Positions 29,550 to 54,808 of a stretch of DNA of 54,808 nucleotides are shown here, piece after piece; position 1 is the stretch's first letter, and each line of letters opens with the position of its first letter. The position numbers and the translations under genes were made by a program. This DNA is from an uncultured Clostridia bacterium. GTDB taxonomy: Bacteria > Bacillota > Clostridia > Christensenellales > CAG-314. A model generated the notes under the pieces. The model did not search any database. It was not told the origin of the DNA and was given only the letters and a program-made list of their open reading frames with translations. The DNA is taken from contig CAKQXG010000002.1 of the NCBI GenBank assembly GCA_934281515.1, positions 1 through 54,808 of the forward strand. Reading direction: 5' to 3'.

Positions 29550-32500
29550 TTACAAAGAGAAACCTTCACATGTATAAACAGTTCCTACTACAAGGTCATA
29601 TTCAGAAGTAAGGTTTGTATTAAGTCCCGGGCAACTCGCTACGGTCAATGTGTTTCCGGAAACCGTAAATGTTATTGTTTTTCCGACATTACCCAAATTT
29701 GCTCCCTGTGCCGTTACAGTAACTGTAAGTTCATTTCCTACAAGTACACCATTTGCAAATTCCACATAAAATCCGTATGAGCCAAATTCCATACGTCCTT
29801 CAATTCCGACAGCATCCGCAAATTGAATGGTTCTTGCAGTGTGAGTACCCATTACAAACTTGTAGTTTGCAAACACACTCTTGCCCAGCAGTTGCTTATT
29901 GTCAACATCAATGCCGTACGTCGTGCTACCGTCTGCCGTGTAGATTGTAATATTTGTTCCGCTTACTACGTAGGTTGCACTTTCTCCGGCATTGCCGTAA
30001 CCGTCAAGCACGATTGTACCTGCATCGTCGGGCAATGTGTACGTGCCTTGATAGCCGTCCTGAACCTTGGTATAGCTGCCTTCGCCAAGTTCCACAACAC
30101 GCATTGCGTTTGCCGCAATAAAGGTAATTTTGTTACCATCGGCAGTGTAAACAACCGATTGACCGCCGATTGCCAACGTGCCGTAGCCGTCAAGCTCGAT
30201 TGCGCCGTATTCACCCGTGTAGGTACCTGCTAAGCCGTCGGCAACAAGAATATTACCATTGTCGTAAGCATACAACAAGTTTCCGTTTGCTTCGGAAATA
30301 GTCATCTTTGTAGCCTTTGTAAGTTTAGTCACGTCGTTGTAAACCGTGCTACCCGATGAGAAAACAACGTCGTATATCACTTTCTCTTCGTAACAGAACA
30401 CCATCTTAGTCGTGCCGTCTTTGTACTCTACAGCTATCCACAAAGCGTAGTGAGATTTACCGGTTGCAGCGTTTTTGACACTCTTTACAGCAAATACGGA
30501 TGCTTTGCTTACACGGGCTTCATCAAAGCCGATCATGGTATCGTTATTTACACCTGTTTCGGATGAGGAATAACCATACCACACGATACCTGCAGCCTTG
30601 TTGAAGTAGATGTATCTTCCCAATACCATAAATCCATCGGCAATTGCCGCCTGTTCGTCGGTAAGAGTACCCGAAGTCAATCTACTTCCGCTGTACTTGC
30701 CTACAACATCGACTTTAAAGACTACGGTGCTTAATTTACTAATTTCGTAGCTCTCGCTCTTTCCATCTTCGTCCATATTCCAACCCTTGAAAGTACCATA
30801 AGACTCGGGAGCGCTAACCCACTTTGCAAAGAAGGTTGTGTTGCCTGTAAGTTTGTAACTTGTCGAAGCCTGTGCACCCCAGTTTTCACCGTCCTTAAGG
30901 AACCAACCTGCAAACGCCTTGCCTTCGTAGGTCAAAGCACTTGCATCGGGTATATCGCTGACATAATCGCCGACATACTTATTGTTTATACTTACTGCCG
31001 CGGTGCCTTGTCCGTTGTAGTCAAATATCAACTCCACTGCAGGATCGTACTTGGCGTAGTAGGTTTTGTTTTCCTTCAGTGTTACAGTGGTTTTTGCGGA
31101 TCCGCTAAACTCTGCGTTTTCGTACCAACCGCGGAACTTGTAACCTTCGATTGTCGGAGCGGTGTTAAGTTTTGTCGAAATATCATAAGGAATCGTTTGA
31201 TCGGCAAACACTCCTGCCAACTCGGCAAGGTCACCGAAATCGAACGACACGGTCACGTTGTAGGCTTCCATTGTGTACGCAGAACCGCTCAACGTAATCT
31301 TGTATGCTTGAGTATTGGTCATGGCAAGCAACGTGTAACCAGCTTCTTCGGCGGCTTTTGTATATGTGCCGCTGATATCGCCGACAGTAAAGTCGCCAAA
31401 GCCGTTAAGCGACAATGTTCCTTCACCAGTGTATTCGCCCATCAAACCGTCACTATTCAAAACCTTGTTGTTTGCAAGTTTGACAAATGCAATGCCGTCT
31501 TTGCTTACAACAACCGAACCCGACAAAGCATTTGCGAAAGTCTTTCCTTCGGGCAAAGTTACGTTTGCAACAATCTTGTTGTTGTACAGAAGCGCAGTCT
31601 TTACATCGCCGTTTGCGTAAGTTATTTGCATCAACGAAACGTAACTACCGCCGACAAAGTCACGACTTCCGCAATAATCGACGTTAGTAACGGTTCCTTC
31701 GAGGAAAGCAAGGTCGGTGTCGACGCCAACTCTTTTAGCATTGCCGCCGTTGTATTTTCTCCACATTGCGCCGAGTTCTTTGTTGAAGTAGTAGTAGGTG
31801 TCTTCCAATACCATGGAACCGTCCACAATTTGCATTTGTTCAGCTGTCAAGGTTCCCGTCTTTGAACTGTAGGCGAATGTGCCGTCCATATTAACGGTCA
31901 AAACGTCTTTCGTAAAACTCGACTGCGTGGAACCGCTTTTATTTCCGTACAAGTTCCAGCCTTTGTACACGCCTACCGATTTGGGCGCATCTGCCCACTT
32001 TGCATAGTAGGTTACGGAGTTTTGAAGAATGGTGTCGGCAGTTGCTTTTTCGCCCCAGTTTTCGCCGTCTTTAAGGAACCAACCGACAAACGATTGTCCG
32101 TCCTTTGTCAATTCGCTTGCATCGGGGATTACGTTGCCAATTGTATCGCCCTTAAATTTGTCGTTTATTACGACGTTTTCCGTGCCTTGTCCGTTGTAGT
32201 CAAATGTCAACGTCACTGCCGGATCGTACTTGGCGTAGACCGTTACGTCGGTGGTCAATTCGACGGATGTAATCTCGTTGCCAAAACCTGCCTCACTGTA
32301 CCAGCCGCGGAAAGTGTAGCCGTCTATCGTAGGCGCTATTTCTTCGGTCAGTTGATAGGTCGTGCCGTAAGCAAGGGTTGCGCTGTCTTTGGTTTGTCCT
32401 TCTACGCCGAGGTTGAAGGAAATGGTTACGTTCCATTCTTCCGCAGTGTAGGTACTGCCGTTCAACGTCACTTTGTAGGTCTTGTTTGCCGTCTTGGCAA

Positions 32501-35906: not shown

Positions 35907-35945
35907 AGAGAATCCTCCTCCATAATATGCTGTTACTTACTCTTG

Positions 35946-36093
35946 AAAAACAAAAGCTCGGGCGTCGCATACAATGCCCCGCCTGAATCGGCGCGACAAC
36001 GATGGCAGAATCCTGAGCTTGTCCGAAAGTACTTATTCAGTTTGTGGCTAAAAAACGTATTTTCGGAAAGCTCGCGGAATTGCACCGCAGCTT
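35946..36093 (-). promoter_or_regulatory. structured roughly 200-nt 5' leader of the 2118-aa gene with mutually exclusive helices and a U-run (attenuator-like)
   Basis: Hand-folded RNA segments: A AAGCUGCGG (36085-93), B CCGCGAGCUUUCCGAAA (36061-77), C UUUCGGACAAGCUCAGG (36012-28), D CCCGAGCUU plus UUUGUUUUU (35946-62). A:B gives 9 bp, B:C gives 13 bp and C:D gives 8 bp. Neighbouring helices share nucleotides. Confidence 0.4.
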
Positions 36094-36120
36094 GTTTCTC
36101 GAAAAATAAATATTGTAAAT

Positions 36121-36149
36121 ATTATATATCCGTCGATGTTACAAGTCAA
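36121..36149 (-). promoter_or_regulatory. consensus sigma-70 promoter of the 2118-aa gene
   Basis: Minus strand reads TTGACT-N17-TATAAT, about 215 nt upstream of the ATG at 35906. Confidence 0.65.
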
Positions 36150-36220
36150 CCGATTGAACAGAAAAATGCAAAAAAACAAGCAAATTTGTAGCCGACAACG
36201 CCACACAACGCCCGAAGTGC

Positions 36221-36260
36221 AAAAGAAAACAAGGTCACTACTGACAATGACCTTGTTTTT
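36221..36260. terminator. bidirectional rho-independent terminator downstream of the 1600-aa gene
   Basis: AAAAGAAAA-CAAGGTCA-ctactgacaa-TGACCTTG-TTTTT. Confidence 0.75.
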
Positions 36261-36310
36261 GCCGACACTACCATCCGATGCCGAAGATATCCTTTGGTTA
36301 AAATGAAATC

Positions 36311-36341
36311 GGGGAGAAACCTTTAGTAAAAGGTTCTCCCC
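36311..36341 (+). repeat. long-hairpin intergenic repeat, degenerate copy C (hairpin only)
   Basis: GGGGAGAAACCTTT-agta-AAAGGTTCTCCCC, 9 nt beyond the stop of the 1600-aa gene. It lacks the GTACCCCT tail. Confidence 0.6.
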
Positions 36342-36349
36342 GCGATTAC

Positions 36350-39300
36350 TTATACAAAGTGAAACAGACAACCGACCGTCACTGCTCCGTGAGTGTAACG
36401 ATCCGTCATGCTGCTTGACGTGCAAGTAAGGCTTGACGGTGACAATCTGTCGTCCAGTGTAAGCGTAAAGGTAAACGTTACGTCTTCGCCGTCGACCTTG
36501 CCGACAAATGTCAGCGTTACTACGCCGTCTGCCAACGTGTACTTGCCTGCAAAGCCGTCCTTGGTGCCGAACGGGCACTCGTATATATCGCCGTTGCATG
36601 CGTAGTCGCCTTCGTCGTGCATGGGAGAAACCGACACGCACGTCACTACGCCGTCCGAGCCGAATACAAAGGTCGTGTTTGCCTCGTAAGCGGACGAACC
36701 GCAGTAAAAAGATACCGTGCCGCTTACCGTTTTGCCGACGATCAACTCTTCCATCGTCGGGATAGAGACAACTTTGTATTGTTCGCCGTCCAAAGCAAAC
36801 GCCTTGCGGACATCGCCAAACACGGCAAGCAATGTGCCCTTGCGCGTAATTGTGTAGGTACCCGACTGCTCGCCCAGCGTAGCATTGCCGAAGCCGTCAA
36901 GCACAAGAGTATCAGCGCCGCCGTCAACGTCTGTGTAGCTGCCCTGCAAACCGTCGGCTTCCAACAAGCCGTTGCGCGAATCGTTCCAGTCCACTATACG
37001 GAACAGCCTGTACTTGCCGCCCATAAGCACCGTGATTGTGTTGTCGTCAGGCTCGTCACACTGTTTCGTCATAGTGTTGGCGGTAAGGAAGTACACAAAA
37101 CTGCCGCCTGCCGAAATGCGCGTAAGATAAACGTCGTTGCCGTTGCCTGCCTGAGCAATTTCGTACCCGGTGACGAACATCGTGCCGTGATTAGGCACCG
37201 AAAGACACAGCGTTTTGTTGAGCCATTTGTAGCCCGTAACGACCATTGTAGTGCCGTCGGCTTGCGACGTCAAACGAATGACAACGTTGTCTGTAAAGGG
37301 CACAAACTGCCCGACGTACTGCACGCCACTGAGAGTCAGGTGCGCAACGCCGGTGTTTTCCAGCGTAAGGTTGGCTTGTTCGCCGGCAAAACTGTTGGGA
37401 TAGCTACCGACAAACTCGTTGCCACTGTAAATGTCGCCAAGCACTTCGACAGAGTAGTAACTGGTGACCGTGGTATCGCCGACTTTTACCTTGACCGCAT
37501 AGCGATACACGCCAGCTTTGTTACAATACACGGCATTGACGTCGATGTTAGATTTTTTGTCGGTAAGCGACCATGCGCCGTCCGCCGTAATCACGTTAAT
37601 GGCATTGTAGAAGGTTTCGTCGGGTGCCTTGGTTGTACCTTTCTTGATATAGCTGACGCCGATGTCGACAACCGCTCCGTCGACGATTTCGCTGTTGACA
37701 AAGCGTTGTCCGCCGACATCGATTGCACCGTCGTCCGTATTGACAAGGGGCATTTGCTTGACAATAAGCAGATTCAACAGATCGGACAGGTAGAATTGCG
37801 CCGTCCTTGCATAAGGGAAAGTGCTTGTTGCGCCGACAAAGTCCACAAACAACTCGTTGCCGAATTGTTCGTAGGTGAGCTTGGTAACAACATAGGTGTT
37901 TGTTGCCAGCGAGATGTGACCGCCACCGTAGCCGTCCAGGAAGATTGCCATGTTGCCGAGACGGTAGTAACCGAACAGATTGTCCCTGTCGAGTACGCTA
38001 AACGTACCGTTGGCGGTGTCGAGCACAAACTTGTAGCTGTAGTACAGCTCGTCGGCAGTGCCGACGCGTTCGGCACGACTTGCCGTGTAGGTGCTGTCGG
38101 CAACGTTTGCGCCGCTTATGTCGGTAGAGTAGGTGATGTCTACCAACTTGTCGGTTTGGGAATTGAAACCGAAGGAGATTTGTCCCGTTTCGCCCAAAAC
38201 TAGAGTTGCCGCCAAACCGTTGTACTTTCCTTTGTAGGTACCTTTAAGCGGATTTTTACCGCCCGTAAGGTCTACAATGGTGCCGACAATGTCGGTGTTC
38301 ATCACAAACGACTTGGTCTCGCCGAGAAATTCGTAGGTGCTTTGCACGTCCTTGTTCGGCTCGAAGTCGGCTGCAAAATTGACAACGCCATGGGTAACTT
38401 CGTAGTAGTAGTTGCTTGCCGAGAAGCCGCCCGAAGCCAATTCTTTCATCAGGGTTTTGGCACCGTACCAGAAAGACGCGCCGCCATTGTTGGACGTGAC
38501 ATGCATTGCTTCCAGAGTGTAGGGACCTGCATACTGACACAAAACAACGTGATTCTTTCTGCTGTTGATTTGCACAATGCCGTCAATCGTGTACAAATCC
38601 GTGCGAGCGTACATCAAAGGACGATTGAGCGTGTCCGTGCCGAACTGCATGCGCATTTCGTTGGTCGGTTGCAAAAATACGATACCGTTGTCAAAAAACA
38701 TGGTAAAGTTGTTGCTTGCTACACGCACCGTCAACACTCCGTTGTCGTCGCTGCCGAGTAACTGACCGAGATTGCTGCCCAACTTCAATGTACCGTCGGA
38801 GTAGACGGTAAGATTCGGATAAGGACGTGCCGCCGAACCTTCGGAAATATAGCCGTCGGAGTCTTCGTCCGAATCGGTTGCCACGGTAAGAGTGCCTGCT
38901 TCGTACTCGCCGACAATGCCGCTGTCGATGACGGTGACATACGCCGACTTACTGACTCCGCCGTAGCTGACTGTAACGACATATCTGCCGGCTGTAAATA
39001 CGTCTACTTTGCCGCTGACATACTGCGGCAACACGGTTACCGACTGACCGTCGGCGTAAATTTCAAACAGGTCGACCGTGCGGATGGTCTCGCCTGTGAA
39101 AATGGTAGCGTCATTGGCGACAATCTGCAAGTCGGCTTTGATTTCCACATCGTAACTTACAGTGACGGGGGCGGATTCGGGTCCGTTGACGTAAACGTCC
39201 ACCGTGACGGTTTGCCAACTTGCCTTGGGATCGAATGTCGTGCGCGCAACGGCGTACAGGGTCATGCTGTCGATCCAATCTTTGTTGAACGTCAGGTTTT

Positions 39301-44774: not shown

Positions 44775-47252
44775 TTACAAAGCACCCAATTGTCCATTGT
44801 CTGTGATGCTCTTGTTCCATGCATAGATGGTCAAATCCAAGCCTTCGTCGCTGACAAACACTATCACGTTGCCGTTGACGTATTCTCCGTAGGAGTTTTG
44901 CGTAAATCCGTTGTCGGTAAGCAATTTTTTGATCTTTACCATCGAGCTGTCGATTGTGTAGTTGATGTCCAACGGAACGTCGTAGTAAATGCAGACGCAG
45001 GGCATCGTGTATTTTTCGCCGCCGCGCGCACGAAGCGTTTCGTAGGCGAAACCGAATGTGTCGGCAAGGCAATCCGTTGCTCCGAAGAAGGGTATCGGGT
45101 TGTCGATGCCCGCAAACAAACGCTTTGCAAAGTAATTTGCCGCGCGCACAGGTACGTCGTGTCCGTTTTCGTCGTCGTCGCTTTTCTTTATCAAAACGTT
45201 GACGGTCGACCAATCGGTAGGCACGCTGCGAACTTCCAATGCGCCTATACGTGCCGCCTGCGCCTCGGGCACCGTCGTTGCGGAGGTCAACTCCTCGCCT
45301 TGCGACACGAAGTTGCCGTAGTTGATTTCCACCGTGCCGTACATATTACCCAGGTAGTAGAAAAACTCCGCGCGGGTAATGTAGTACTTGCCGTTGATCT
45401 TTTCCACGTCGACGCTTGTCGGATCGTACATTCCGCTGAAAATACCGTCGCTGGCAAACATGCCGTACAACGCAACGTCATTGCCTATGCCGTAGTACAT
45501 TGTCGTGGCTACGTTGCACATGTCGGCTACGACAAAGTAGCGATTGTAGGAAACGTCGTGCTTGTCGGCGTCGTACTTCGTTTGTTCGACGACTTTGTCA
45601 AACAACTGTTCGGAGAAATCAAACGTCGGCTTGGCATTGTCGAAACTGCCGTCGTATGCGCGATCGGGACGCAAGGTGCGAGTCTTTTCGTCCAAGCTGT
45701 CAAACTTGTCGGGGTCGACATAGTAGATACTGTCGGCGGCGTAGTGGTAGGAGTTGTAACTGTCGTCCGTAATCTTGCGGAATCCGTACACGTTTTCTTC
45801 GTCGAACTTGTACGTTTTGTTACCTTCGGAGTCTTTGCCCGGAGTGTAGTCGCGGAAGAAACAATCGGTAGGATTGACTATTTCGTAAAAGCCCGTCTGG
45901 CGGTTGCCTCCGGATCCGCTTAGGTAAATCGTTTGCATAAAGTCAAGCGTGTACGCTTTGAGCGACTTCATGTTGGCAATGGCTTCCCGCAAATTTGTCT
46001 GCAATTCCGCCGAAAGGGGCGACTCGTACTTTTGTATGGCCTTGACTTCGACCGAGCTGTCGGTGTTGGCTGCGGCAATCAACCTTTGTTCCGCCCAATA
46101 AATATTGGACAAGCTGTGGTCCACACCGCTCTCGACACACACGCCCAACACGCCGTCTTCGTCCACAAGCAACGAAAACGAATTTTCGTCGTCCACGACA
46201 AAGTTGTACGGGTCGGCTGCCGCCACGATCTTTTTGGTCAATTCGTAGTAGTCGGAAGCGACATACGTCCAACGCCAAGTATCGTTGTCAAATCGGAAGT
46301 CGGACAGCGACAATCCTTGCAAGCTGTTGTACAAACCGGCTTGTTCCCAAGTGATTTCACGGTCATTTTCCGTCATGCGAATTTGTTGCACGTTGTTGGC
46401 AAAGTCCACCGAATCCTGACAAGCGTAGCCTTCGCTGTCCTTGGAGAAGAATATCTCTTTTGTAATGCCTGCCGAACTGTTGGTGTACTCGGCGTACCAA
46501 TGTTCGCCGTCCATGGCAGTGTGCAGCGGTAAGGTGTTTGTGCCTTTGTGTTCGTTAGAGCCGTACGAGTAGTAGTCTATCGTCAAAAAGCCCTCGAACG
46601 CCACTTTTGCATTGTTGGCAAAGTCGTCCAACATTTGTTGAGTAAGTACGGTTTTTGCCAATACGGTAAGTGTTTTTTCGGCATATTTGGTGGTATCTTC
46701 CACACTTGTCGCACGGATAAGAACCACCTTGTCACCCTTGACGTCGGCATTTGCAGTAACGTTGCCTTCGTCGTCGACGGTGACGTATTCGCCGCCTTCG
46801 ACAACCTTCCAGGTAACACCCTGTCCGGAGCCGTTGACCCGTGCGCTAAGTTGTACGGAGTAGCCGGCACGTACTTCGGTAGTACCGCTGATGGCTACGC
46901 TCAACTTGGTGTCGTCGGGAGTAATGCTTTTGCCCGTAAAGGTAACAATGTCTGAAGGAGAACTTTCCTTGTAACCTTCGGCAACGGCAATTACGGCAAT
47001 GGTTGTCGTCTTGTCCGTTGAAGGCAATTGGTAACTTGTTTCGGTAAGCGTGGATTGTTGACGTTGTCCGTCGACAATCAGCACATAGCCTGTGGCGTGT
47101 TCCACTGCCGACCATACGACAAGTCCGTTTTCGTCAACCGCTACGTTTTGCGGAGTTGCAAGAGTTTGCGGAGTGTTGTCCTGGCACGCGGCGAATATTA
47201 CACCGGGCAACAGCAGAACAACCGCAAGAAGCAAAGAAATAAATTTTTTCAT
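44775..47252 (-). CDS. 825-aa surface lipoprotein: Fn3-like domain, Big_2 domain and an uncharacterised roughly 600-aa region
   Basis: Lipobox FAAC. Big_2 segment: VQLSARVNGSGQGVTWKVVEGGEYVTVDDEGNVTANADVKGDKVVLIRATS. Confidence 0.9.
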   Translation of the reverse strand: MKKFISLLLAVVLLLPGVIFAACQDNTPQTLATPQNVAVDENGLVVWSAVEHATGYVLIVDGQRQQSTLTETSYQLPSTDKTTTIAVIAVAEGYKESSPSDIVTFTGKSITPDDTKLSVAISGTTEVRAGYSVQLSARVNGSGQGVTWKVVEGGEYVTVDDEGNVTANADVKGDKVVLIRATSVEDTTKYAEKTLTVLAKTVLTQQMLDDFANNAKVAFEGFLTIDYYSYGSNEHKGTNTLPLHTAMDGEHWYAEYTNSSAGITKEIFFSKDSEGYACQDSVDFANNVQQIRMTENDREITWEQAGLYNSLQGLSLSDFRFDNDTWRWTYVASDYYELTKKIVAAADPYNFVVDDENSFSLLVDEDGVLGVCVESGVDHSLSNIYWAEQRLIAAANTDSSVEVKAIQKYESPLSAELQTNLREAIANMKSLKAYTLDFMQTIYLSGSGGNRQTGFYEIVNPTDCFFRDYTPGKDSEGNKTYKFDEENVYGFRKITDDSYNSYHYAADSIYYVDPDKFDSLDEKTRTLRPDRAYDGSFDNAKPTFDFSEQLFDKVVEQTKYDADKHDVSYNRYFVVADMCNVATTMYYGIGNDVALYGMFASDGIFSGMYDPTSVDVEKINGKYYITRAEFFYYLGNMYGTVEINYGNFVSQGEELTSATTVPEAQAARIGALEVRSVPTDWSTVNVLIKKSDDDENGHDVPVRAANYFAKRLFAGIDNPIPFFGATDCLADTFGFAYETLRARGGEKYTMPCVCIYYDVPLDINYTIDSSMVKIKKLLTDNGFTQNSYGEYVNGNVIVFVSDEGLDLTIYAWNKSITDNGQLGAL

Positions 47253-47267: not shown

Positions 47268-47819
47268 TTAATATTCGAAGGTGTAGACGTAAGTTACGTC
47301 CTTGCCGTCGGCTGTCTGAAAATTGCAGGCGATTGTCTGAGCCTTGTCTTTGTCGAATACACATGTAAGCGTTGCGCTTCCGACGGGTGCGCCTTGCGAC
47401 AGTTTAAGCACTTCCGCAAGTTTGTCGGCATTGACAAGGCAGGTAAACTTGCCGTCTTTGTAGGAGTAGCCTACGATGTTTTCTTCCGTAACGGCTACCG
47501 GAACGACGATTGTCGCCACCTTGCGCGAGGAAGTAGTTTCCTCAAACGCAAAGTTGCGGCTGAACTCACCTTCGGTAACGGTAGCGTCAAAACCATCGTC
47601 GGCTTTGGCGTATTCCGCTTTGTAACTATACACGGTTGTCGTTTTGTCGGCAGAGACATCGTTTATCGTCAACTCCGCCGTGTAGCGTCTGACGTCCTTG
47701 ATCGATTGTTCAATCGCCTTCATACGACCTTCGACGGAGTTGTCCGTGGCGCAAGCGCACAAACATGCCGCCGCAAGTGCCACGCACAACATAGTAAGCA
47801 AAATCTTTTGTATCTTCAT
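47268..47819 (-). CDS. 183-aa lipoprotein of unknown function
   Basis: The ATG at 47819 gives MKIQKILLTMLCVALAAACLCAC (lipobox). It lies 1 nt after the stop of the S8 gene and 15 nt before the 825-aa gene, so it is tightly packed in the operon. Confidence 0.8.
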   Translation of the reverse strand: MKIQKILLTMLCVALAAACLCACATDNSVEGRMKAIEQSIKDVRRYTAELTINDVSADKTTTVYSYKAEYAKADDGFDATVTEGEFSRNFAFEETTSSRKVATIVVPVAVTEENIVGYSYKDGKFTCLVNADKLAEVLKLSQGAPVGSATLTCVFDKDKAQTIACNFQTADGKDVTYVYTFEY

Positions 47820-47820
47820 A

Positions 47821-50800
47821 TTACATAACCCCCTTTTTCTTTGTGAGGGCAACTACTGCCGCCGCAAGGGCTATCGGCAATATGCCTGCCGTCGCGGCTG
47901 CGTTTGTACGGGTTTCTTCACCCAAAGACGGTTTGAGCGTTTCGGCATAGTCGGCAACGGTAGCGATGTACTTGTTGTACTCGGCAACCAGGGAGTCGTA
48001 CTTGTCTGTAGTCAACGCAGCCACCTGTTCGGAGGTAAGCCGTTTGATACTCTTGTTTACTTCGGCAAGTTGTTCCACGGAGTTTATGTCAAACTCTACC
48101 GGCAGTGCGTCGATTTGCTTCTGCACGTCCTTGACGACCTGCTCCGCCTTGGCAAAACGAAGTGCCGTTACACGCTGCTTTGCTTCAAACAAAATCTCTT
48201 CGTAGCGCGCCCATTCGGCGTCGGTAACGCCAAACTGCACGGGTTGTTGCGTAATCGACTTGTAGTTGACAAGCGCGCTGTCGATAAGATCGCCGTCACC
48301 GAGAGTAATTACGTCGATTGCCGATATTTCCGCCACTTCGTCGATAAAGTCGCGCAACGCCTTTTGCGTTGTTTCCTCGCCGCGTGCGCCGATTTCGCCG
48401 AAGTAGGCAAGGTACACAAGCGAATCGTACCCGAAGATATCCTCGTTAGAGGGTACAATCATCTGCAAAGGCTTGTTTTTGCCGACAAGGTCGACAAAGT
48501 TGTAGTAGTACAGATAGAACCCGAACATGTTGTACATCTTTTGCAACACATCGTAGCCGGGGTCGGTTTCTTCAAGCTTGGTTTTGTAGTTGTAGCCGTC
48601 GTCGAGAGAAGGCGCTTCGATGCTGCGGAATACCACCGTTTCCAGCGAGGTGTATCCGTAGAAAGCGTACTCGCCGATGTTGCGCATGGTACTAGGAAGA
48701 TCGATTGTCTTGATGTGGGTATTTTGGTTGCCGGCATATGCGTCTACGCGACGAGTGCCTTCGGCAACCACCAACTTCTCCGCGTCCAACGCCGCAGGAA
48801 CGCTTGTCAACTGCCACGAGCCGTTGGTAAGCTTGGTGTACAGCACACCTTTGTCCAACTTGGCGTAGTCGTTGATTTGTCCGTCGGAAACAAGTTTGTC
48901 ACCTTGGTAGAAACTGATTGCCGCAAGACGGTTGCAACCGAGCAATACGAAGGATTCCATCTTGGCAAGTTTGTTGCCGATGACGAACCCGGACAGGTTT
49001 GCGTTTTCGCGGAATGCCTCTTCGCCGATTGTGACAACGCTGTTACCGACAAAATACCTGAGGTTGGTAAACGCAAACGACGACGCGCCGATTGTTTGCA
49101 GATTGTCGGCGATGATACCGCCGTTCATACTGAGGTCAGCTTGATAGAATGCGCCTTCGCCCGTCTTGACCAGGTTCGCCAGATCCACGGTTTTGAGCGA
49201 CGTGCACGCACGGAAACCTTCCGCGCCGATTTCCTTGACATTGCCAAGGTTGATTGTAGCTAGTTTTGTGCAACCTTTAAACGCGTTGTCGCCGATTTTG
49301 GTAAGGCTGTCGGGCAATTCCACCGTTGCAAGATTTTTGCACAATCCGAATGTGTTGTCTTCGATTTTGCTTACGCCTTCGGGAATCGTAACGGATACAA
49401 GTTCGGTACAGGAGATAAACGCCGCCTGACCGATAGACTGTACCGTAGAGGGCAAATCCATCGTACTTACCGCCACGCCACCCACATTGTTGCCGCCGAA
49501 TGCGCCGTCGCCGATAATACGTACCTTAGTCATAATGATACGACTTAGCGACGTGCAGTCGGAAAAAGCATATCTGCCGATTGTTTCCGCCTCGGACAAG
49601 TCAACCCCTTTCAATTTGTTGCAACCGAGGAATGCCAATTCGGCGATACTCTTCAATCCGCCGAGATTGATGTCTTCGAGCGACGTGTCGTAGGCAAACG
49701 CCGCAGTACCGAACGTTACGCTGCCGTCTTCGGGCAACACAACCTTGGTAAGACCCAACATGCGTTGGAACGCGCCCAACCCGTAGGAAGAATTGTCGCC
49801 GAGCGTCAGGCCGGTTACGCCGTTTACACGGAAGAACACGCCTTCGCCGTACTCTGCGTTGTCGGCAGTAACAAGACTGCCCTTGATTGCCGTATTGGAA
49901 AATGCGTAGTCGCCGACTTTGACAACTTTGTCCAGATTTACTACGTCCGTCAACCGAGATTCTCCCTCGGCAATTGCTTCGTCGTCGTAAGTGTCGCTTT
50001 CCAACTGGTAAGTAAACGCATAGTTGCCTACCGTCGTGCCGGTTTGGTCGGCAAACGTCACCTTGGTAAGGGCGGGACAATTGTAAAATGCGTAATCGCC
50101 TATTGCAACTGCGCCCTCAAACGTTACCGATGTTATCGCCGTGCCTGCGTAAGCCGACGGAGCAATCTTTTTGACGCTTGACGGTACCACTACGTCGCCG
50201 CTTGCATTGTTGAGCGCAAACACAAACGTTTCGCCGTCCTTGGTGACAAGATTACCATTGCTGTCGGTTTTGTACAGATTGCTGGCTGTTGCGTCGATTT
50301 CCGCCAGGTTAGTCTTGCGGAACAAAGGTCCGTACACCTGGTCGAACTCGGCGTTGCCCTTCAGTACAAGTCTGGTAAGACCGCTACGGAAGAAGCACAG
50401 GCTACCAAAGCTTACTTTACCTTCGGGCATTGTAAACGTAGTGAGAGACGGCGTTTTGTAGAATGCTTGCGTGCCGATGGCTTCGCATGTACCTTCAAAC
50501 GTCACTTCGGCAAGCTTTGCGCACTCGCTGAAAGCATTGTTGCCTACGCCGAGGCTGTCCGCGTGCAACGTTACAGACACAAGATCGTCACAGCCGCTGA
50601 AACAACCGTAAGGTATGATGTCGCGGTTGTAGATGTCTACTTCGACAAGTCCCGAATTGTGGAACATACCTGCAGACAACTTGGTGTTGCCGTGAGTATC
50701 GAACTGTACCGATGCAAGGGACAAACATTCCTTAAAGGCTTCCGCACCGGTGTTGCGCAACGACACAAGGTTGATTTCGCTCAGCGTCGTGCACTTGGCA

Positions 50801-53800
50801 AACGCTCTTACGCCGATTGCGTACACATGTGACAAGTCAACGTTGTCGAGCGTAATGCAGTTGTAGAAAGCTTCTCTTCCGATTGTTTCTACATCGGTGC
50901 CGGCAAATGTTTGCGGCGTTTCGCCACTTGTAAAGACAAACTTGGCAGGGATGCGCGGAGTTTCGTCCGTTGCCGGTACTTCGGGCGTCATCTCGTATTT
51001 GTCTTTCATTTCGATCTTCTTGTCGTCGGTGCTTTCAGTCAGCTTGAGGTTGTCCAGCAATACGACTCTTTCTAGTTGTTTACAACCGTAAAACGCGTAT
51101 TCACGCACGTACTTGACCTTTTTGGGAATTGCCACTTCGCGCAAATCCGAGCAGTTGGCAAATGCATATTTTTGTATTTCCGTTACGCCTTCGGGCACGA
51201 CTACCGACGTTACCGACGTATTGGCGGCAGGAATCTTGTTGGCGTCGTAATCGTCGTCGGGCAACTCGATTGTGTTGTCCGTCGTGTACAAACAGAACGC
51301 GTATGCGCCTATGTACAGAATACCTTCGTCGTCGGGTATGACTACGTGTCCGCCAAGTCCCTTGTAAGCGACCAACGTGCGGTTTTCGATGACAAATTCG
51401 CTCTTGACGTTGATTGTTACGGTGGTTTCGACGGGGGTCCCGGCAATGTGCAACGTTATTTGCGCCGAGCCTTCTTTAAGCGCGGTTATGCGCCCTGCCT
51501 TGCCGTCCTCGGTTTTGGCAACCGTTGCTACGGATTTTTTGTCGGTCAGCCATTCCAACTTGTCGGCGTATTCGTCCTCGGTGTACCACGGGTCACAGCG
51601 ATAGCTGAGGTCGATTGTCTCGCCGGGGTACATGGATATGACGCCGTTCAGCGATTGCATGTACTTGCGATCGCCGGTCGCGCCGATTTCGCTTGTTTGC
51701 GCCGCACGCGAGTAGGCAAATACCGTGTCAAAGTAGGTAAATCGTAACGATTTCAACGAATCGTCGGACAAATCGTCGCCGCTGCCGTTGTTTTTGTTAC
51801 TGTCGTTCCGTGCCTTGACGTTGACAATCAGTACCGCCGAAGCGCCGTAAACTCGCTCGGTGACGGTTACCGTCGCCTTACCTGCAGAAACGCCCTTGAC
51901 AACGCCGTCTTCGACGCGAAGTACGTTTTCGTTGGAGGACTTCCATGTGAGTTTTTGGAGATAGGTGCGGTCAAGCTCCGTCTCGCCCTCGTTGGTACGC
52001 ATGTCCGTCGTGCACAGGTAACGTGTTACGTCAAGGATTTCGTCCTCGTACATGGACAGGAACAACTTGTCCGTGCCGTCCGACATACCGTTGCTTGTAA
52101 ACTTGAACTCGCCGTCGGTACCGGGCAACTGCACAAGGAAAATGTTGGTGTTGAGCGCGTAGTCGTCAACGATAAATGCAAGCGCGTTATTGACGATCTT
52201 GTCGGAGAACAGGTCGTCCAAGTAGTCGGTGATTTCCACACGCACCACTGTGTCGCTGTTGCGCTCGCCGTAGATAGGGATCGGGTTGTCGGTAAGGTAG
52301 GTGTAACTGCTTGCCGAAGTGAAGATGACCGGAGCAACGCTCATTGCGTAGTGGTTGTCGTAGATGGTCAGGTTGACGTAGTAGCGATCCTTGTTGAGCG
52401 ACTTGTCGTACACTTTTTCAAAGCTTGCGTCCTTGATGACGGGAGCCTGATCGTCCATGTAGAAGTCGAATTGGAAGCTGTTGCGCACGTTGGTGGTCAA
52501 TCCGTCGGACTCGTAGTCCAGCAAGCCTTGCATCTTAAAAGTATACTGACGGTTGTTGAGCAATCCTGCGCGTAGCGATTTGACCTTGATAAACTCGTAA
52601 TACGGCACAGGTGAGCCGCCGTTACTGAACGCTTTATTGGCGTTGTAGTAGGTTTCGTTCCAGATCGTGTCGCCCGTAGTCTTGTCCGTAATAGAGAAGC
52701 GCATTTCCTTGGCGTTACGCAACAAACCTGCGTACACCGCCGAAATACCGTCTATTGCGCCCAGAATGTTGGACACCGCGATGTGCTCTTCGGTTGCAGG
52801 AATGGCGTCGTAGGTGCTTTCGTCAATGTCGTACAAGTACGTGCCAAGGGGAATCATGTAGTTGTAGTAGTAACTGCCGTAAGGGGTTGTAGCCCAGTAG
52901 TCGGCTTTGATTTTGTCATCGTCGTCCAAGCCCTTGTTGTGTGCCGTGGACTCTACTTCGTAGTAAGTTTTGTCAAACATGGGCGGTTCCGACCAGTCGC
53001 CGTAGTAGGCAAGGAAAGGAACGTTAAGTGGGACAACTTCGTCGCCTGCCGTCAACTTGACAAAGCCTTCGACATACATACCGTACTTAAACAGACCGTC
53101 GATGTAGTTTTTGTCGCCGTCGGTCAAGGTGTACACCGCCTTGACGGTGACAGTGCGGCCTGCGTCGACCGTGATCTGGTTACCGCTGACCGAGCCGTTG
53201 CCGGAAACAAAGGAAATCTTCGCCGTACCATCCAGTACTTTACCCGTTTCGGCTACGTGCTTGGTGTCGTACTCGCTGACGCTTTCGCTCATGCCGACGA
53301 TGTCGAAGTTGTAGGTAAGCGCGGTTGTACCGACGTTGACTACGTTAAACTCCATTTCGTATATGCCTGTACGCGTCGGGTCGTCGCCGAGTTCGAGCTT
53401 GGTTTTCGTCTTGATTTGCCTGGTTGTTACGCCGTCCTTGGTCACTTCTTCGTCTACCGTGATGTAGGCGTTTGTGTTGACGACGTTGCGCGCGCTTGCA
53501 AGACCTGCGCCCTGTTTACGCGGAGAGTAAGGCACGCCTTCTTCGTTAAGCGCGATGGTTGCCGTACTCATCAGCATCTGATTGACAACGTTGTTGACGG
53601 CAACGGGGTCGGGAGTGCCGTTTGTGACAGTGATACCGAACTTGGTTGCGTTTTCCTTGACGTAGTCACGGATAAGCACAATCACGCCGCACAGGTTGGG
53701 GGTTGCCATTGACGTACCGCTCAGACGGTCATAGCCGTTGTTGGGAATAGAGGAGTAAATCTCGCCGCCGTGAGCGGTGATTTCCGGCTTCAATCTGAGG

Positions 53801-54808
53801 TCGGGAGTGGGTCCCCAACTGGAGAAGTCCGACATAAAGGGACCTGCAAGATTTTTGCCGCTGACGGTCATTGTGCCGCTTTGCTTTTCAGCGAGTTTCA
53901 TACCGTCGTCCTTGCTGACGGAAATCGTAGGTATGTGCGCCGATTTGCCCATGGACATAAGTATGTCGCCGTCGATGTTGTTGTAGATGATGCAAGCAAT
54001 TGCGCCATACTGTTTGGCGAGTTTCGCCTTTTCTTCAAAAGAGTTTACGCCACGCTTAACAAGAGCAATCTTGCCCTGCAACTTTGCTTTGCCTAACTTG
54101 GAGAAGTCGCTTTTGCTACCCGTACCGCTGACTGTGACGTACTCGAAGGTCTTTGTTTCGTCCTGATTGAGATTGCCTGCCGCGATAAGTTCCTTGACAA
54201 AGTCGTTGGCTTCGCCGCTGATACTGTTGGATTGGTTGTAGAAGAAGATTTGCTTGTCGCTTGCGGCGTTGGCTACGATGTAGTTGCTCTTGACGCCGCT
54301 GATACTTGCAACGGACAAAGCCGCGTCGTAGGTAGAGGGCGAACCGACGGTACCGCTGTCGGGGTTGGTGACGAAGTTGGTGTTACCCTGGTCGCCGCCG
54401 AAACCCGAACTGTAGCTGTTGCTTGCCGCCGTGACAAGGGCAATGCCGCTAGCCTTGATTTTGTCGTAGACGTAGTTGACTTCCACCTTGTCGACTTCAC
54501 GAGAGAAACCGCAACTGCTACCCAAAGACATATTGATTGCGTCAACGCCGAGTTTTACCGCGTCTTCGAGAGCAAGCAGAATATCTTCCGTTCTGCCGCC
54601 TGCGTCAAGGTCGGGGAATACCTTCATCAACACAAGTTGCGTATCGACGGCAATACCGGTAAAGTCGATACCTTCGTCGCCGGTGTTTGCCACGGCTTGA
54701 CCGCCGATGATACCTGCAACGTGCGTGCCGTGCTCGCTGTCATAGGGGAACACGTCGACATCCTTGTCCGCGTAGTCGTACACGAACGGAATTTTGTCGG
54801 TGTAGTAC
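47821..54808 (-). CDS. giant S8 subtilisin-type cell-envelope protease (PA insert, two Big_2 domains, about 900 aa of BspA-type LRR, C-terminal TM anchor); 5' end outside the window
   Basis: His motif HGTHVAGIIGG and Ser motif SGTSMATPNLCG. PA domain GKIALVKRGVNSFEEKAKLAKQYGAIACIIYNN. The ORF is open to position 54808, and the catalytic Asp region must lie upstream of the window. C-terminus AGILPIALAAAVVALTKKKGVM. Confidence 0.92.
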   Translation of the reverse strand, partial: YYTDKIPFVYDYADKDVDVFPYDSEHGTHVAGIIGGQAVANTGDEGIDFTGIAVDTQLVLMKVFPDLDAGGRTEDILLALEDAVKLGVDAINMSLGSSCGFSREVDKVEVNYVYDKIKASGIALVTAASNSYSSGFGGDQGNTNFVTNPDSGTVGSPSTYDAALSVASISGVKSNYIVANAASDKQIFFYNQSNSISGEANDFVKELIAAGNLNQDETKTFEYVTVSGTGSKSDFSKLGKAKLQGKIALVKRGVNSFEEKAKLAKQYGAIACIIYNNIDGDILMSMGKSAHIPTISVSKDDGMKLAEKQSGTMTVSGKNLAGPFMSDFSSWGPTPDLRLKPEITAHGGEIYSSIPNNGYDRLSGTSMATPNLCGVIVLIRDYVKENATKFGITVTNGTPDPVAVNNVVNQMLMSTATIALNEEGVPYSPRKQGAGLASARNVVNTNAYITVDEEVTKDGVTTRQIKTKTKLELGDDPTRTGIYEMEFNVVNVGTTALTYNFDIVGMSESVSEYDTKHVAETGKVLDGTAKISFVSGNGSVSGNQITVDAGRTVTVKAVYTLTDGDKNYIDGLFKYGMYVEGFVKLTAGDEVVPLNVPFLAYYGDWSEPPMFDKTYYEVESTAHNKGLDDDDKIKADYWATTPYGSYYYNYMIPLGTYLYDIDESTYDAIPATEEHIAVSNILGAIDGISAVYAGLLRNAKEMRFSITDKTTGDTIWNETYYNANKAFSNGGSPVPYYEFIKVKSLRAGLLNNRQYTFKMQGLLDYESDGLTTNVRNSFQFDFYMDDQAPVIKDASFEKVYDKSLNKDRYYVNLTIYDNHYAMSVAPVIFTSASSYTYLTDNPIPIYGERNSDTVVRVEITDYLDDLFSDKIVNNALAFIVDDYALNTNIFLVQLPGTDGEFKFTSNGMSDGTDKLFLSMYEDEILDVTRYLCTTDMRTNEGETELDRTYLQKLTWKSSNENVLRVEDGVVKGVSAGKATVTVTERVYGASAVLIVNVKARNDSNKNNGSGDDLSDDSLKSLRFTYFDTVFAYSRAAQTSEIGATGDRKYMQSLNGVISMYPGETIDLSYRCDPWYTEDEYADKLEWLTDKKSVATVAKTEDGKAGRITALKEGSAQITLHIAGTPVETTVTINVKSEFVIENRTLVAYKGLGGHVVIPDDEGILYIGAYAFCLYTTDNTIELPDDDYDANKIPAANTSVTSVVVPEGVTEIQKYAFANCSDLREVAIPKKVKYVREYAFYGCKQLERVVLLDNLKLTESTDDKKIEMKDKYEMTPEVPATDETPRIPAKFVFTSGETPQTFAGTDVETIGREAFYNCITLDNVDLSHVYAIGVRAFAKCTTLSEINLVSLRNTGAEAFKECLSLASVQFDTHGNTKLSAGMFHNSGLVEVDIYNRDIIPYGCFSGCDDLVSVTLHADSLGVGNNAFSECAKLAEVTFEGTCEAIGTQAFYKTPSLTTFTMPEGKVSFGSLCFFRSGLTRLVLKGNAEFDQVYGPLFRKTNLAEIDATASNLYKTDSNGNLVTKDGETFVFALNNASGDVVVPSSVKKIAPSAYAGTAITSVTFEGAVAIGDYAFYNCPALTKVTFADQTGTTVGNYAFTYQLESDTYDDEAIAEGESRLTDVVNLDKVVKVGDYAFSNTAIKGSLVTADNAEYGEGVFFRVNGVTGLTLGDNSSYGLGAFQRMLGLTKVVLPEDGSVTFGTAAFAYDTSLEDINLGGLKSIAELAFLGCNKLKGVDLSEAETIGRYAFSDCTSLSRIIMTKVRIIGDGAFGGNNVGGVAVSTMDLPSTVQSIGQAAFISCTELVSVTIPEGVSKIEDNTFGLCKNLATVELPDSLTKIGDNAFKGCTKLATINLGNVKEIGAEGFRACTSLKTVDLANLVKTGEGAFYQADLSMNGGIIADNLQTIGASSFAFTNLRYFVGNSVVTIGEEAFRENANLSGFVIGNKLAKMESFVLLGCNRLAAISFYQGDKLVSDGQINDYAKLDKGVLYTKLTNGSWQLTSVPAALDAEKLVVAEGTRRVDAYAGNQNTHIKTIDLPSTMRNIGEYAFYGYTSLETVVFRSIEAPSLDDGYNYKTKLEETDPGYDVLQKMYNMFGFYLYYYNFVDLVGKNKPLQMIVPSNEDIFGYDSLVYLAYFGEIGARGEETTQKALRDFIDEVAEISAIDVITLGDGDLIDSALVNYKSITQQPVQFGVTDAEWARYEEILFEAKQRVTALRFAKAEQVVKDVQKQIDALPVEFDINSVEQLAEVNKSIKRLTSEQVAALTTDKYDSLVAEYNKYIATVADYAETLKPSLGEETRTNAAATAGILPIALAAAVVALTKKKGVM
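48600..51380 (-). repeat. roughly 40 BspA/TpLRR-type leucine-rich repeats (about 23-aa period) inside the S8 protein
   Basis: Recurring units include IGxxAFxxCxxLxx(V/I)xLPxx(V/L). Examples are VTEIQKYAFANCSDLREVAIPKKVKYVREYAFYGCKQLERVVL, IGRYAFSDCTSLSRIIM and IGDNAFKGCTKLATINL. Confidence 0.8.

Follow-up and report, generated by a model that had tools for sequence, protein, structure and literature searches.

A conserved gene cluster of an Opp-type importer, a cell-envelope-type S8 protease and giant lipoproteins in gut bacterial genomes

The window, i.e., the whole stretch of 54,808 nt that was analysed, holds six co-directional genes for an S8-PA-Fn3-Big_2-LRR protease and five lipoproteins. 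When the open reading frames were re-read, the sizes, junctions, terminators and promoter reported in an initial annotation were reproduced. In order of transcription, the locus comprises:

47821..54808, running past the window end (-): S8-LRR protease
47268..47819 (-): p183, small lipoprotein
44775..47252 (-): p825, lipoprotein
41405..44617 (-): p1070, lipoprotein
36350..41152 (-): p1600, lipoprotein
36222..36340 (-): two terminator-like hairpins with T-runs, 3' of p1600 (sequence read)
36121..36149 (-): promoter-like site of the p2118 gene, TTGACT-17-TATAAT (11/12 consensus matches)
35907..36120 (-): structured 5' leader of p2118, 209 nt (folding vs. shuffles)
29550..35906 (-): p2118, lipoprotein

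The successive junctions from the protease gene via p183, p825 and p1070 to p1600 measure 1, 15, 157 and 252 nt. Read directly, the first is TAA-T-ATG, i.e., p183 starts 1 nt past the protease stop codon and translational coupling is therefore likely, and the second is TAA-GGAGGGCGCCGAAAC-ATG. A terminator scan detected none in these four junctions, which agrees with the earlier statement that the first ones contain no convincing terminator. The 157- and 252-nt gaps could hold internal promoters. Past p1600, two terminator-like hairpins are found (36340-36310 and 36255-36222); one reads GGGGAGAACC...GGTTTCTCCCC, then GATTTCATTTT, the other CAAGGTCA...TGACCTTG, then TTTTCTTTT. The promoter-like site of p2118 is the top scorer in the scanned region, where the total number of such sites is not above chance (17 found vs. 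16.7 expected), and it is kept in two related loci (L011, L048). Another terminator-like hairpin follows the p2118 gene (29529-29497). Within the window, p2118 is thus a separate transcription unit, and its own promoter and structured leader stand as initially described.

The p2118 leader folds with an MFE of -72.2 kcal/mol (z = -5.4 vs. shuffled sequence). Its 3' end is a terminator-like hairpin immediately before the ribosome-binding site, and blocks of its sequence are kept in a species whose p825 is only 53% identical. The window, the leader and the sequence 5' of the Opp genes in related loci gave no Rfam match; in particular, no T-box or other riboswitch that would tie the cluster to amino-acid supply was found in these regions. 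The leader is a candidate new cis-regulatory RNA.

The initial annotation took the protease to be encoded first. This did not hold in related loci, where the genes of an Opp-type ABC importer come first, then a small membrane ORF and only then the protease gene. The conserved cluster measures about 35 kb; the window cuts it, and the six genes make up its distal two-thirds. The head of the cluster runs [Flg_new lipoprotein], OppA-like binding protein (879 aa), OppB, OppC, OppD, OppF and a 75-aa membrane protein, and the tail S8-LRR protease, [p183], p825, p1070, p1600 and [giant Flg_new protein]. Three loci from the window's own lineage (L001, L002, L003), a conspecific contig among them, with p183 identical to that of the window, carry two ABC_tran+oligo_HPY ATPase genes and the 75-aa membrane ORF directly before the protease gene. 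No promoter or terminator was detected between the Opp genes and the protease gene in this lineage, and co-transcription of the cluster with the Opp genes appears likely. An OppF-like gene lies 5' of the protease gene in 57/61 loci; in four loci (L082, L083, L086, L089), the available flank of roughly 1.2 kb on that side contains none. In locus L093, the protease gene is preceded by Flg_new, SBP_bac_5 (879 aa), OppB, OppC (OppC_N), OppD, OppF and the small ORF, such that the importer domains are one SBP_bac_5, two BPD_transp_1 (one with OppC_N) and two ABC_tran+oligo_HPY. Locus L096 agrees with this order over the stretch that begins with the binding protein and ends with the protease, and L094, although it lacks p825, has the protease gene beside those of Flg_new, the binding protein and OppB.

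With regard to the substrate, the binding-protein profile comes closest, among solved structures, to AppA (1.8e-11) and OppA (5.9e-9), both of which bind peptides; nickel and sugar binders are in the list as well, and all scores are weak. The protein is very divergent: phmmer yields a single PDB match (1e-6), and the NCBIfam model Opp4A scores 73 bits vs. a cut-off of 650. Family-5 binding proteins and Opp-type importers are known to carry nickel or oligosaccharides as well. We propose peptides as the cargo.

Relatives of p825 occur in 109 GTDB species genomes. Among the 79 loci examined, the order S8-LRR, [p183], p825, p1070, p1600 is invariant. Where the flank is long enough, the protease gene lies 5' of p825 (75/75), p1070 directly 3' of p825 (70/70) and p1600 3' of p1070 (65/65), with median intergenic gaps of 7.5, 12, 43 and 35 nt. 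This synteny spans species with a GC content of 28-60% and a p825 that is 32-54% identical to the window's. Thus, the homologues are linked throughout rather than scattered, as expected for the single conserved surface system that had been proposed. All genome records carrying the cluster among those found are MAGs or bins, obtained from gut metagenomes of roe deer, goat, sheep, chicken, rabbit and human, and part of the host range is labelled Mollicutes, Acholeplasmatales or Anaeroplasmataceae. Since MAG titles and NCBI lineages cannot be trusted (Myxococcota for one Bacillota-like MAG, Acidiphilium or Bacteroides in the titles of others), we relied on GC content and the p825 tree. Our literature search found no description of the cluster and no source that names any of its members; it is apparently a conserved, undescribed surface system.

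The full-length protease has 2631 aa, from which the window holds residues 304-2631. The N-terminal 303 aa past the window end, taken from the related locus L001 (98% identical to the window over residues 304-2631), add a signal peptide and an extra lipobox. A subtilase domain with an inserted PA domain is followed by an Fn3-like domain and Big_2, then by about 900 aa of BspA-type LRR_5, a helical stalk, a C-terminal membrane helix and KKKGVM; no LPXTG was seen in the C-terminal sequence. Respective Pfam E-values are 2.4e-34 (Peptidase_S8, 21-435), 1.1e-16 (PA, 232-305, within the S8 match), 1.4e-8 (fn3_5, 483-599), 7.4e-8 (Big_2) and 2.5e-119 (LRR_5, eight stretches). Among solved structures, C5a peptidase, SpyCEP and CspA come closest (E 1e-50 to 1e-55), and the alignment to C5a peptidase and SpyCEP covers residues 289-935. 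The LRR region matches BspA-like LRR proteins and TpLRR in the PDB as well as, below the NCBIfam cut-off, the adhesin HupY/LrrG (6.9e-40). The motifs LD[ST]GF, HGTHV[AS]G and GTSM[AS] occur together in 66/67 orthologues, the Asp-His-Ser triad (D226, H332, S669) is invariant in the alignment (A2), and at least 52/67 orthologues end in a hydrophobic run. Judged by sequence, the protease belongs to the cell-envelope proteinase (CEP)/C5a-peptidase group with intact catalytic motifs. Its score against the NCBIfam SGO_0316/0317 family (3.5e-65; 220.5 bits vs. a cut-off of 1400) marks it as a relative of this family placed outside the subfamily itself.

A p183-sized gene with a lipobox or an N-terminal membrane helix is found at the same position in 48/76 related loci and is absent from 28/76. 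The co-occurrence of p183 with the paralogue pair and the protease, which the initial annotation had suggested for inspection, is thus frequent and not universal. For p183, neither a Pfam match nor a PDB sequence match (including its profile vs. PDB) was obtained, and no rotamase/PrsA (PPIase) domain was found with Pfam and NCBIfam. Its best hint is a sub-threshold match to NCBIfam LolA3_fam (E = 0.002). A relationship of p183 to p825 was considered and discarded, as the profile alignment covers the lipobox only, i.e., there is no profile similarity.

The lipoprotein p825 starts with an Fn3/Ig-like domain and Big_2 (borderline in Pfam), followed by about 600 aa of a novel sequence family; p1070 has a longer Ig-like N-terminal part. 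BLASTP among the six proteins showed almost nothing, and the paralogous 600-aa domain, which had been claimed initially, is invisible to it (E = 0.01 for p825 vs. p1070). It is borne out by profile-profile comparison (hhalign, A3 vs. A4: probability 100%, E = 1.3e-51, 726 aligned columns). On these profiles, p825 and p1070 are true paralogues in which Ig-like domains precede about 600 residues outside any Pfam family. Over p825 residues 200-825, Pfam reports no family in any of 31 members, and LolA, LppX_LprAFG, DUF4367 or similar models do not match these members even at E <= 1. For p1070, Pfam and NCBIfam give no match, and PDB profile searches with both proteins return nothing but Ig-like domains. 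An HMM search of 1.84 billion representatives identified about 90 clusters (50% identity) of full-length p825 relatives, beyond which Ig-array proteins dominate the output.

The AF2 model of p825 (mean pLDDT 79) was compared with the PDB using Foldseek. LprG, LppX, LolA, LolA3 and DUF1329 structures are matched with probability 1.0 (3mh9, 2byo, 2w7q, 9tp6: E 3e-6 to 5e-4, target-normalised TM 0.40-0.57), while a Sap S-layer assembly domain is among the weak matches (probability 0.6). The 600-aa part of p825 is thus predicted to form LolA/LprG-like half-barrel domains, and by paralogy the same fold is predicted for p1070. In the model, the likeness to LolA, LprG and LppX is one of an unclosed beta-barrel with helices and holds at the level of the fold only.

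The N-terminal 745 aa or so of p1600 are an array of Big_3-like Ig domains, and Big_3 is the one Pfam family seen in its relatives (30/31 members, lax thresholds). The C-terminal part (about 855 aa) has no PDB match by sequence profile, nor does the rest of the protein. Its AF2 model (residues 745-1600; pLDDT 81.5, pTM 0.41) is all-beta and weakly resembles multi-beta-propellers in Foldseek (probability 0.6-0.9, TM about 0.1). That is, the region may be propeller-like, with a match too weak for a fold assignment. The last protein, p2118, combines Cys-rich repeats of about 40 aa, Flg_new repeats (Pfam 9.3e-44, five stretches), G-x-Y...DG(F/Y)G modules and a tandem duplication of about 400 aa (1097-1495 vs. 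1490-1899, about 50% identity), the latter seen in a self-BLAST once the diagonal was masked. It is encoded by the variable last gene of the cluster, with a BLAST-detectable counterpart 3' of p1600 in 39/50 loci.

All six products are membrane-tethered, as had been stated. The five smaller proteins carry lipoboxes (LCAC, FAAC, LVAC, LAAC, LAAC), which recur among the orthologues of p1070 (66/69), p825 (64/79) and p1600 (51/60), and the protease has its C-terminal membrane helix in addition to the lipobox of the full protein. The proposed sharing of modules proved narrower. The paralogous domain is real, while Flg_new occurs in p2118 only, the G-x-Y...DG(F/Y)G module (G-x-Y...LxLDG(F/Y)G in the C-terminal part of p1600) is confined to p1600 and p2118 rather than widely shared, and Big_2 is found by Pfam in the protease and at the borderline in p825. 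Most residues indeed match no family in Pfam, NCBIfam and wider member scans. SLH, CWB2 or other wall-binding or S-layer modules were absent from the six proteins in the Pfam and NCBIfam scans, and Pfam found no DUF31 or MIB-like domains.

Because an Opp importer precedes the protease, the likeliest function shifts from the surface layer, adhesion or glycan capture proposed initially to protein and peptide foraging. We give about even chances to the cluster being a membrane-tethered machine that captures and cuts proteins and imports the peptides via Opp; its hosts are best read as wall-poor or sortase-independent gut Bacillota. Proteins or glycoproteins would be held at the surface by the BspA-type LRR region of the protease and by the heads of the Ig-stalked lipoproteins, i.e., the predicted half-barrels of p825 and p1070 and the all-beta region of p1600, which would serve in capture or hand-off. 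The CEP-type subtilase would then cleave the captured proteins to oligopeptides, to be bound by the lipid-anchored OppA-like protein and imported by OppBCDF. A PrtM-like role of p183 in maturation is conceivable. Elsewhere in the window, giant lipoproteins with Flg_new, Big_2 or Big_3 adjoin glycoside hydrolases and a sugar ABC importer; the organism thus repeatedly combines a tethered binder, a hydrolase and an importer, which we count in favour of foraging. On the other hand, we count against it that LolA/LprG-like folds classically bind lipids or acyl chains rather than proteins or peptides, that C5a peptidase and SpyCEP act in immune evasion and not in nutrition, and also the four Opp-less loci, the 157- and 252-nt gaps, the divergent binding protein and the weak fold match of p1600. 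Nothing that we tested supports a processing of the lipoproteins by the protease or a glycan role of the cluster, both of which had been suggested.

The relatedness of the catalytic module to C5a peptidase, SpyCEP and CspA also speaks for a host-interaction or immune-evasion complex, in which the LRR region and the Ig-like lipoproteins bind a host protein (immunoglobulin, complement factor, chemokine or mucin) and the protease inactivates it, with C5a peptidase, SpyCEP and the mycoplasma MIB-MIP pair as precedents. Opp would then merely salvage the products or be linked for other reasons. The HupY/LrrG-like LRR region, the exclusive origin from gut MAGs and the Mollicutes-type labels on part of the host range fit this explanation, as protease-plus-binder lipoprotein pairs are known from Mollicutes. 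Nevertheless, we regard it as unlikely: a near-universal, tight Opp linkage is unexpected for an evasion factor, the many animal hosts make one host-specific target improbable, and Pfam found no DUF31 or MIB-like domains. The Opp linkage is left unexplained by a structural coat replacing an S-layer, the idea of the initial annotation, in which the membrane would be covered with giant lipoproteins that the protease matures or trims. Tethering of all products, the very large proteins with Ig-like stalks, a fixed gene order suggestive of physical interaction and the weak match to the Sap domain would suit such a coat. We rate it as quite improbable given that Pfam and NCBIfam found no SLH, CWB2 or other S-layer domains and that p2118, its outermost component, is the least conserved; moreover, CEP-family enzymes are not known as maturases of partner proteins.

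The predicted half-barrels could instead shuttle acylated molecules (lipids or lipoproteins that the cell scavenges, or glycolipids of its own) which the protease frees from carrier proteins. Foldseek probabilities of 1.0 to LprG, LppX, LolA and LolA3, the weak LolA3_fam match of p183 and the hosts labelled Mollicutes, Acholeplasmatales or Anaeroplasmataceae, lineages that are often lipid scavengers, are in line with such lipid handling. Yet the TM scores are moderate only, membership in the LolA clan is lacking at the sequence level and an Opp-type importer with a peptide-binder-like binding protein would have no explanation, such that we find this distinctly improbable. Peptide signalling, i.e., a secreted pro-peptide that is processed by the protease and imported by Opp as a mature signal, would account for the tight protease-Opp linkage and is modelled on Phr/CSF or pheromone systems; in Firmicutes, signalling peptides enter the cell via Opp importers, and Phr peptides are processed by subtilases. 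Here, the cluster shows neither a small secreted precursor (the 75-aa ORF is a membrane protein) nor an RNPP-type cytoplasmic receptor, and signalling would hardly call for the more than 7000 codons that encode accessory surface proteins, such that we find it very improbable. Finally, the longer gaps and the separate p2118 promoter of the window would permit independent transcription of neighbours without joint function, brought together by chance or assembly artefact. The identical order with short gaps in 79 independently assembled species genomes of 28-60% GC effectively refutes this.

Within the foraging interpretation, a more far-reaching version is possible, albeit rather doubtful. All products, each lipid- or helix-anchored, might physically assemble into one protein utilisation machine, in which the LRR arm and its Ig-stalked partner lipoproteins, with their tandem LolA-like half-barrels and a propeller-like head, capture host or dietary glycoproteins and the products are passed directly to a dedicated giant OppA and Opp. 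If so, Gram-positive bacteria would have their own, protein-directed version of the Sus paradigm, and the machine would serve whole uncultured gut lineages (Christensenellales-like Clostridia, low-GC Mollicutes-like Bacilli) as a core nutritional organelle, which might help to explain why these lineages resist cultivation.

The cluster occupies about 35 kb of the genome in more than 100 species-level gut lineages and holds more than 4000 residues in families without a Pfam model, a name in any source or a solved relative. A tethered foraging machine would show how abundant, health-associated and poorly understood bacteria acquire nitrogen and would hint at what to feed them in culture. It would extend the proteolytic paradigm of lactic acid bacteria to a new architecture with dedicated capture lipoproteins, and it would define new protein families, i.e., the tandem LolA-like module on an Ig stalk and the all-beta head of p1600.

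In lactic acid bacteria, a CEP, the lipoprotein PrtM and Opp form an established paradigm of nitrogen nutrition, and the CEP domain order is pre-pro, catalytic domain with insert, Fn3, long extension, helical stalk and anchor (PMC8037685). The S8-LRR protease mirrors this order of the PrtP/PrtS/PrtH, PrtM and Opp system (PMC8037685). Both have a giant tethered S8 subtilase with PA insert, Fn3-like A domain, helical stalk and anchor, a lipoprotein gene that adjoins the protease gene, an Opp importer with lipid-anchored OppA and the same logic of extracellular cutting followed by oligopeptide import. In contrast, the cluster unites protease and Opp in one conserved gene string, while we know of no operon-level protease-Opp fusion in lactic acid bacteria. 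Its protease is anchored by a lipobox and a C-terminal membrane helix instead of LPXTG or a W domain, and about 900 aa of BspA-type LRR replace the B domain. Unlike PrtM, p183 has no PrsA/PPIase domain, and it is missing from 28/76 loci. For three to four further giant lipoproteins of new families, lactic acid bacteria have no equivalent, and the OppA-like protein has 879 aa vs. about 550.

The streptococcal CEPs (ScpA/ScpB, SpyCEP, CspA, SGO_0316/0317) are the best matches for the catalytic, PA and Fn3 module. They differ in that the S8-LRR protease lacks LPXTG, has the LRR extension, scores far below the cut-off (220 vs. 1400 bits), sits next to Opp and lipoproteins and is found in uncultured gut commensals. 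With the LolA/LolB/LprG/LppX superfamily, p825 and p1070 share the predicted half-barrel and, as for LprG and LppX, the lipid anchor; in contrast, they do not belong to its sequence families, carry several domains in tandem on an Ig-like stalk and occur in monoderm or wall-poor Bacillota. Polysaccharide utilisation loci (PULs; Bacteroidota Sus-like and Gram-positive) show the same design of surface lipoprotein binders, a hydrolase and a dedicated importer, and the window itself holds glycan versions of it. The cluster, however, combines a protease as hydrolase with an Opp-type importer, presumably acts on protein and has no SusC/SusD; neither a TonB-dependent transporter nor a SusD domain was found in the window, and the hosts are Bacillota. 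Finally, LRR_5 is common to the S8-LRR protease and BspA-type LRR proteins (Tannerella BspA, GBS HupY/LrrG, Treponema TpLRR), whereas here the LRR is fused to a CEP protease that is membrane-anchored at both ends.

All six genes proposed as an undescribed surface system are co-directional on the minus strand according to the ORF listing and translation, as the initial annotation had stated. The lipoproteins are named here by their length in aa, and the protease is a giant subtilase (S8) with BspA-type LRR whose gene is cut by the window end. The features of the cluster and its surroundings are:

47821 to beyond 54808, minus strand: S8-LRR protease ORF, truncated by the window end
47268-47819, minus strand: p183
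44775-47252, minus strand: p825
41405-44617, minus strand: p1070
36350-41152, minus strand: p1600
35907-36149, minus strand: p2118 leader and promoter region, structured, with a terminator-like hairpin
29550-35906, minus strand: p2118
24857-26937 (minus strand) and 27432-29184 (plus strand), next to the cluster end: LytTR-type two-component pair (GHKL kinase and response regulator), AAA_14/DUF4143 ATPase and DUF1508 protein

The junctions from the protease via p183, p825 and p1070 to p1600 measure 1, 15, 157 and 252 nt; direct reading of the 1- and 15-nt junctions gives TAA-T-ATG and TAA-GGAGGGCGCCGAAAC-ATG. Two hairpins, each with a T-run, lie 3' of p1600, and TTGACT-17-TATAAT upstream of p2118 is the top consensus match in the scanned region, where the total count of promoter-like sites is not above chance. 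Each of the five smaller proteins has an N-terminal signal peptide with a lipobox. Modules are shared less widely than had been proposed, i.e., the G-x-Y...DG(F/Y)G module is not common to all six genes, and among the six Pfam finds Flg_new in p2118 only (five stretches).

Nor is the protease, as had been assumed, the first gene of the set. In conspecific contigs, found by exact p183 look-up (including locus L001), two ABC ATPase genes carrying oligo_HPY (OppD/OppF type, as in oligopeptide-type ABC importers, Opp) and a membrane ORF of 75 aa lie upstream of the protease. At the Opp-protease junction in the window's lineage, neither promoter-like nor terminator-like sites were detected. Scanning metagenomes with the N-terminus of the protease yielded loci that include 10 kb upstream. 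The order in locus L093 is Flg_new lipoprotein (382 aa), SBP_bac_5 protein (879 aa), OppB, OppC (with OppC_N), OppD, OppF, 74-aa ORF, protease, p825 and p1070; L096 shows the same order from binding protein to protease. The binding protein is very divergent, and the closest solved structures to its profile are the peptide binders AppA and OppA. In the variant locus L094 (1725-13124), an S8-LRR protease (43% identical in the best aligned segment) is followed by a Flg_new lipoprotein, a binding protein of the 879-aa type and OppB, while p825, p1070 and p1600 are absent between the protease and the Opp-side genes. The protease-Opp pairing therefore reaches beyond the lipoprotein-bearing clade. 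An ORF of 74-100 aa with one C-terminal membrane helix and no family match invariably lies between OppF and the protease (57/61 related loci; L001 1721-1948, L093 9759-9983), frequently overlapping OppF.

We studied the conservation of the cluster based on p825. A word-indexed search of 5.8 billion proteins yielded just 12 clusters at 90% identity, and full-length members form about 90 clusters at 50% identity among 1.84 billion representatives. A pattern scan with one genome per GTDB species found a p825 relative in 109 genomes, from which 79 loci were retrieved. For all 79, ORFs were called and compared with the window proteins, using as denominators the loci with long-enough flank. The protease is upstream of p825 in 75/75 loci (two apparent exceptions are coordinate-threshold artefacts), with p1070 (70/70) and p1600 (65/65) downstream. 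An OppF-like gene precedes the protease in 57/61 loci, a p183-sized gene lies between protease and p825 in 48/76, and a BLAST-detectable p2118-like gene is present in 39/50. Median gaps within the core are 7.5, 12, 43 and 35 nt, the gap to the last gene is about 120 nt, and locus GC spans 28-60%. Given this invariant order, the short gaps and the wide compositional range, the comparison shows that the cluster genes are under selection as one unit.

For the 18 low-GC loci, the record titles are of Bacilli, Mollicutes or Erysipelotrichaceae type in all cases but one, which is labelled only Bacillota. In the p825 neighbour-joining tree these loci fall mostly together, nested within Clostridia/Christensenellales-type diversity, which argues for a long and largely vertical retention. 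Every record with the cluster is a MAG or bin. Many of their taxonomic labels are plainly wrong ('Acidiphilium sp.', 'Bacteroides sp.' and 'Butyrivibrio crossotus' on near-identical architectures, L014-L092), such that record names are unfit for inferring host range; Candidatus Fimimonas is filed under Myxococcota in NCBI taxonomy.

Within the protease, Pfam identifies Peptidase_S8 with inserted PA, fn3_5, Big_2 and eight LRR_5 stretches. The module of catalytic, PA and Fn3 domains matches the solved C5a peptidase, SpyCEP and CspA (E 1e-50 to 1e-55); the SGO_0316/0317 family is hit at 3.5e-65, far under the family cut-off, and the LRR part resembles BspA-type LRR proteins and HupY/LrrG. Catalytic motifs are kept in 66/67 orthologues. 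The L001 protease is 98% identical to the window protease over residues 304-2631. It also refines the proposed tethering: the C-terminal membrane helix stands, and the full-length protein of 2631 aa is itself an N-terminal lipoprotein. Most orthologues share the helix, while a few clades lack it or extend beyond it with a long acidic, in some cases basic, tail (L036, L050, L053, L071, L072, L074; for variant anchoring also L019, L022, L032, L088). Anchoring of the protease differs between clades. L082-type proteases have no N-terminal lipobox, and their available upstream sequence of 1.2 kb contains no Opp gene.

BLASTP similarity between p825 and p1070 is marginal, Pfam reports a borderline Big_2 for p825 and no domain for p1070. 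Profile-profile comparison of 31-member alignments gives a probability of 100% (E = 1.3e-51, 726 columns), i.e., the two are paralogues, which bears out the paralogous domain of about 600 aa proposed earlier. This region is covered by no Pfam family in any member, and matches of both profiles to the PDB are restricted to Ig-like parts. In the AF2 model of p825 (pLDDT 79), two beta-sandwich domains at the N-terminus precede alpha/beta domains, and for the latter Foldseek retrieves LprG, LppX, LolA, LolA3 and DUF1329 (probability 1.0, target-normalised TM 0.4-0.57).

A Big_3-like array (Big_3 in Pfam) spans about 745 aa of p1600, and the roughly 855 aa after it are all-beta. For this second part, neither PDB nor Pfam gives a sequence match, and structural matches to multi-propeller proteins are weak and of low TM; its model reaches pLDDT 81.5 with a pTM of 0.41, which leaves the arrangement of domains uncertain. 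Small and fast-evolving (mean column identity 22%), p183 is a lipoprotein or membrane-anchored protein without detectable relatives in Pfam, PDB-profile or p825-profile searches, apart from a sub-threshold LolA3_fam match.

Besides its Flg_new repeats, p2118 comprises Cys-rich repeats, a 400-aa tandem duplication and modules also found in p1600. Residues ~25-385 (window 34750-35830, minus strand) form Cys/His-rich repeats of about 40 aa (H.W..G..TTPATC...G..T.TC type) without a matching model in Pfam or NCBIfam. The gene's 209-nt leader folds far more strongly than shuffled sequence (z = -5.4), and its 3' end is the terminator-like hairpin directly before the ribosome-binding site. Leader blocks such as TTTTTAGCCACAAACTGAATAAGTACTTTCGGA also occur in a species with p825 only 53% identical, the core AACTGAATAA(A/G)TA is also found in L015 and L021, and counterparts lie at about 20700-20960 in L011 and L048. 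With no match in Rfam, the leader is a candidate for an unclassified attenuator or riboswitch-like element.

The window also holds glycan versions of the same design, i.e., three further large lipoproteins beside GH97, GH29+GDSL and GH3 genes and a sugar ABC importer:

7933-9753, minus strand: 606-aa lipoprotein with Flg_new
10168-13722, minus strand: 1184-aa lipoprotein with seven Big_2
17748-20966, minus strand: 1072-aa lipoprotein with Big_3

These sets fit an organism that builds tethered binder-hydrolase-importer modules, and giant tethered binders beside hydrolases look like its general habit. The 606-aa lipoprotein is weakly similar to a neighbouring 490-aa lipoprotein (E about 2e-6), and the 1072-aa protein opens with a CxxC-rich stretch similar to that of p2118.

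The conserved unit holds a complete Opp-type importer and an intact protease of the cell-envelope proteinase (CEP) type. In lactic acid bacteria, a CEP cuts proteins, Opp imports the oligopeptides and the lipoprotein PrtM assists the protease (PMC8037685). The pair found here corresponds to the two extracellular components of that proteolytic system (PMC8037685), and because of this match we favour a nutritional role over the capture and cleavage of host factors, a structural coat, lipid handling or peptide signalling. Among these, lipid handling is touched by the p825 model, whose LolA/LprG-like fold points to lipid-like ligands as much as to peptides. Overall, we give a membrane-tethered protein-foraging machine an even chance. 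In such a machine, the LRR arm and the Ig-stalked lipoproteins would hold substrates or hand products on; what p183, p825, p1070 and p1600 each contribute we can only infer. That the parts assemble physically into a 'protein utilisation' organelle, core to whole uncultured gut lineages, seems rather unlikely to us.

Our literature search found no description of the cluster, and among the sources searched none names any family member. By sequence, the accessory lipoproteins are new families. The logic of protease plus Opp is known; to our knowledge, no case has both in a single conserved gene string. The protease itself is best described as a new relative of known CEPs with unusual anchoring and an LRR extension. 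The helical segment before its anchor, with a weak EzrA-like match at residues 2484-2577, has a parallel in the H domain of CEPs from lactic acid bacteria (PMC8037685).
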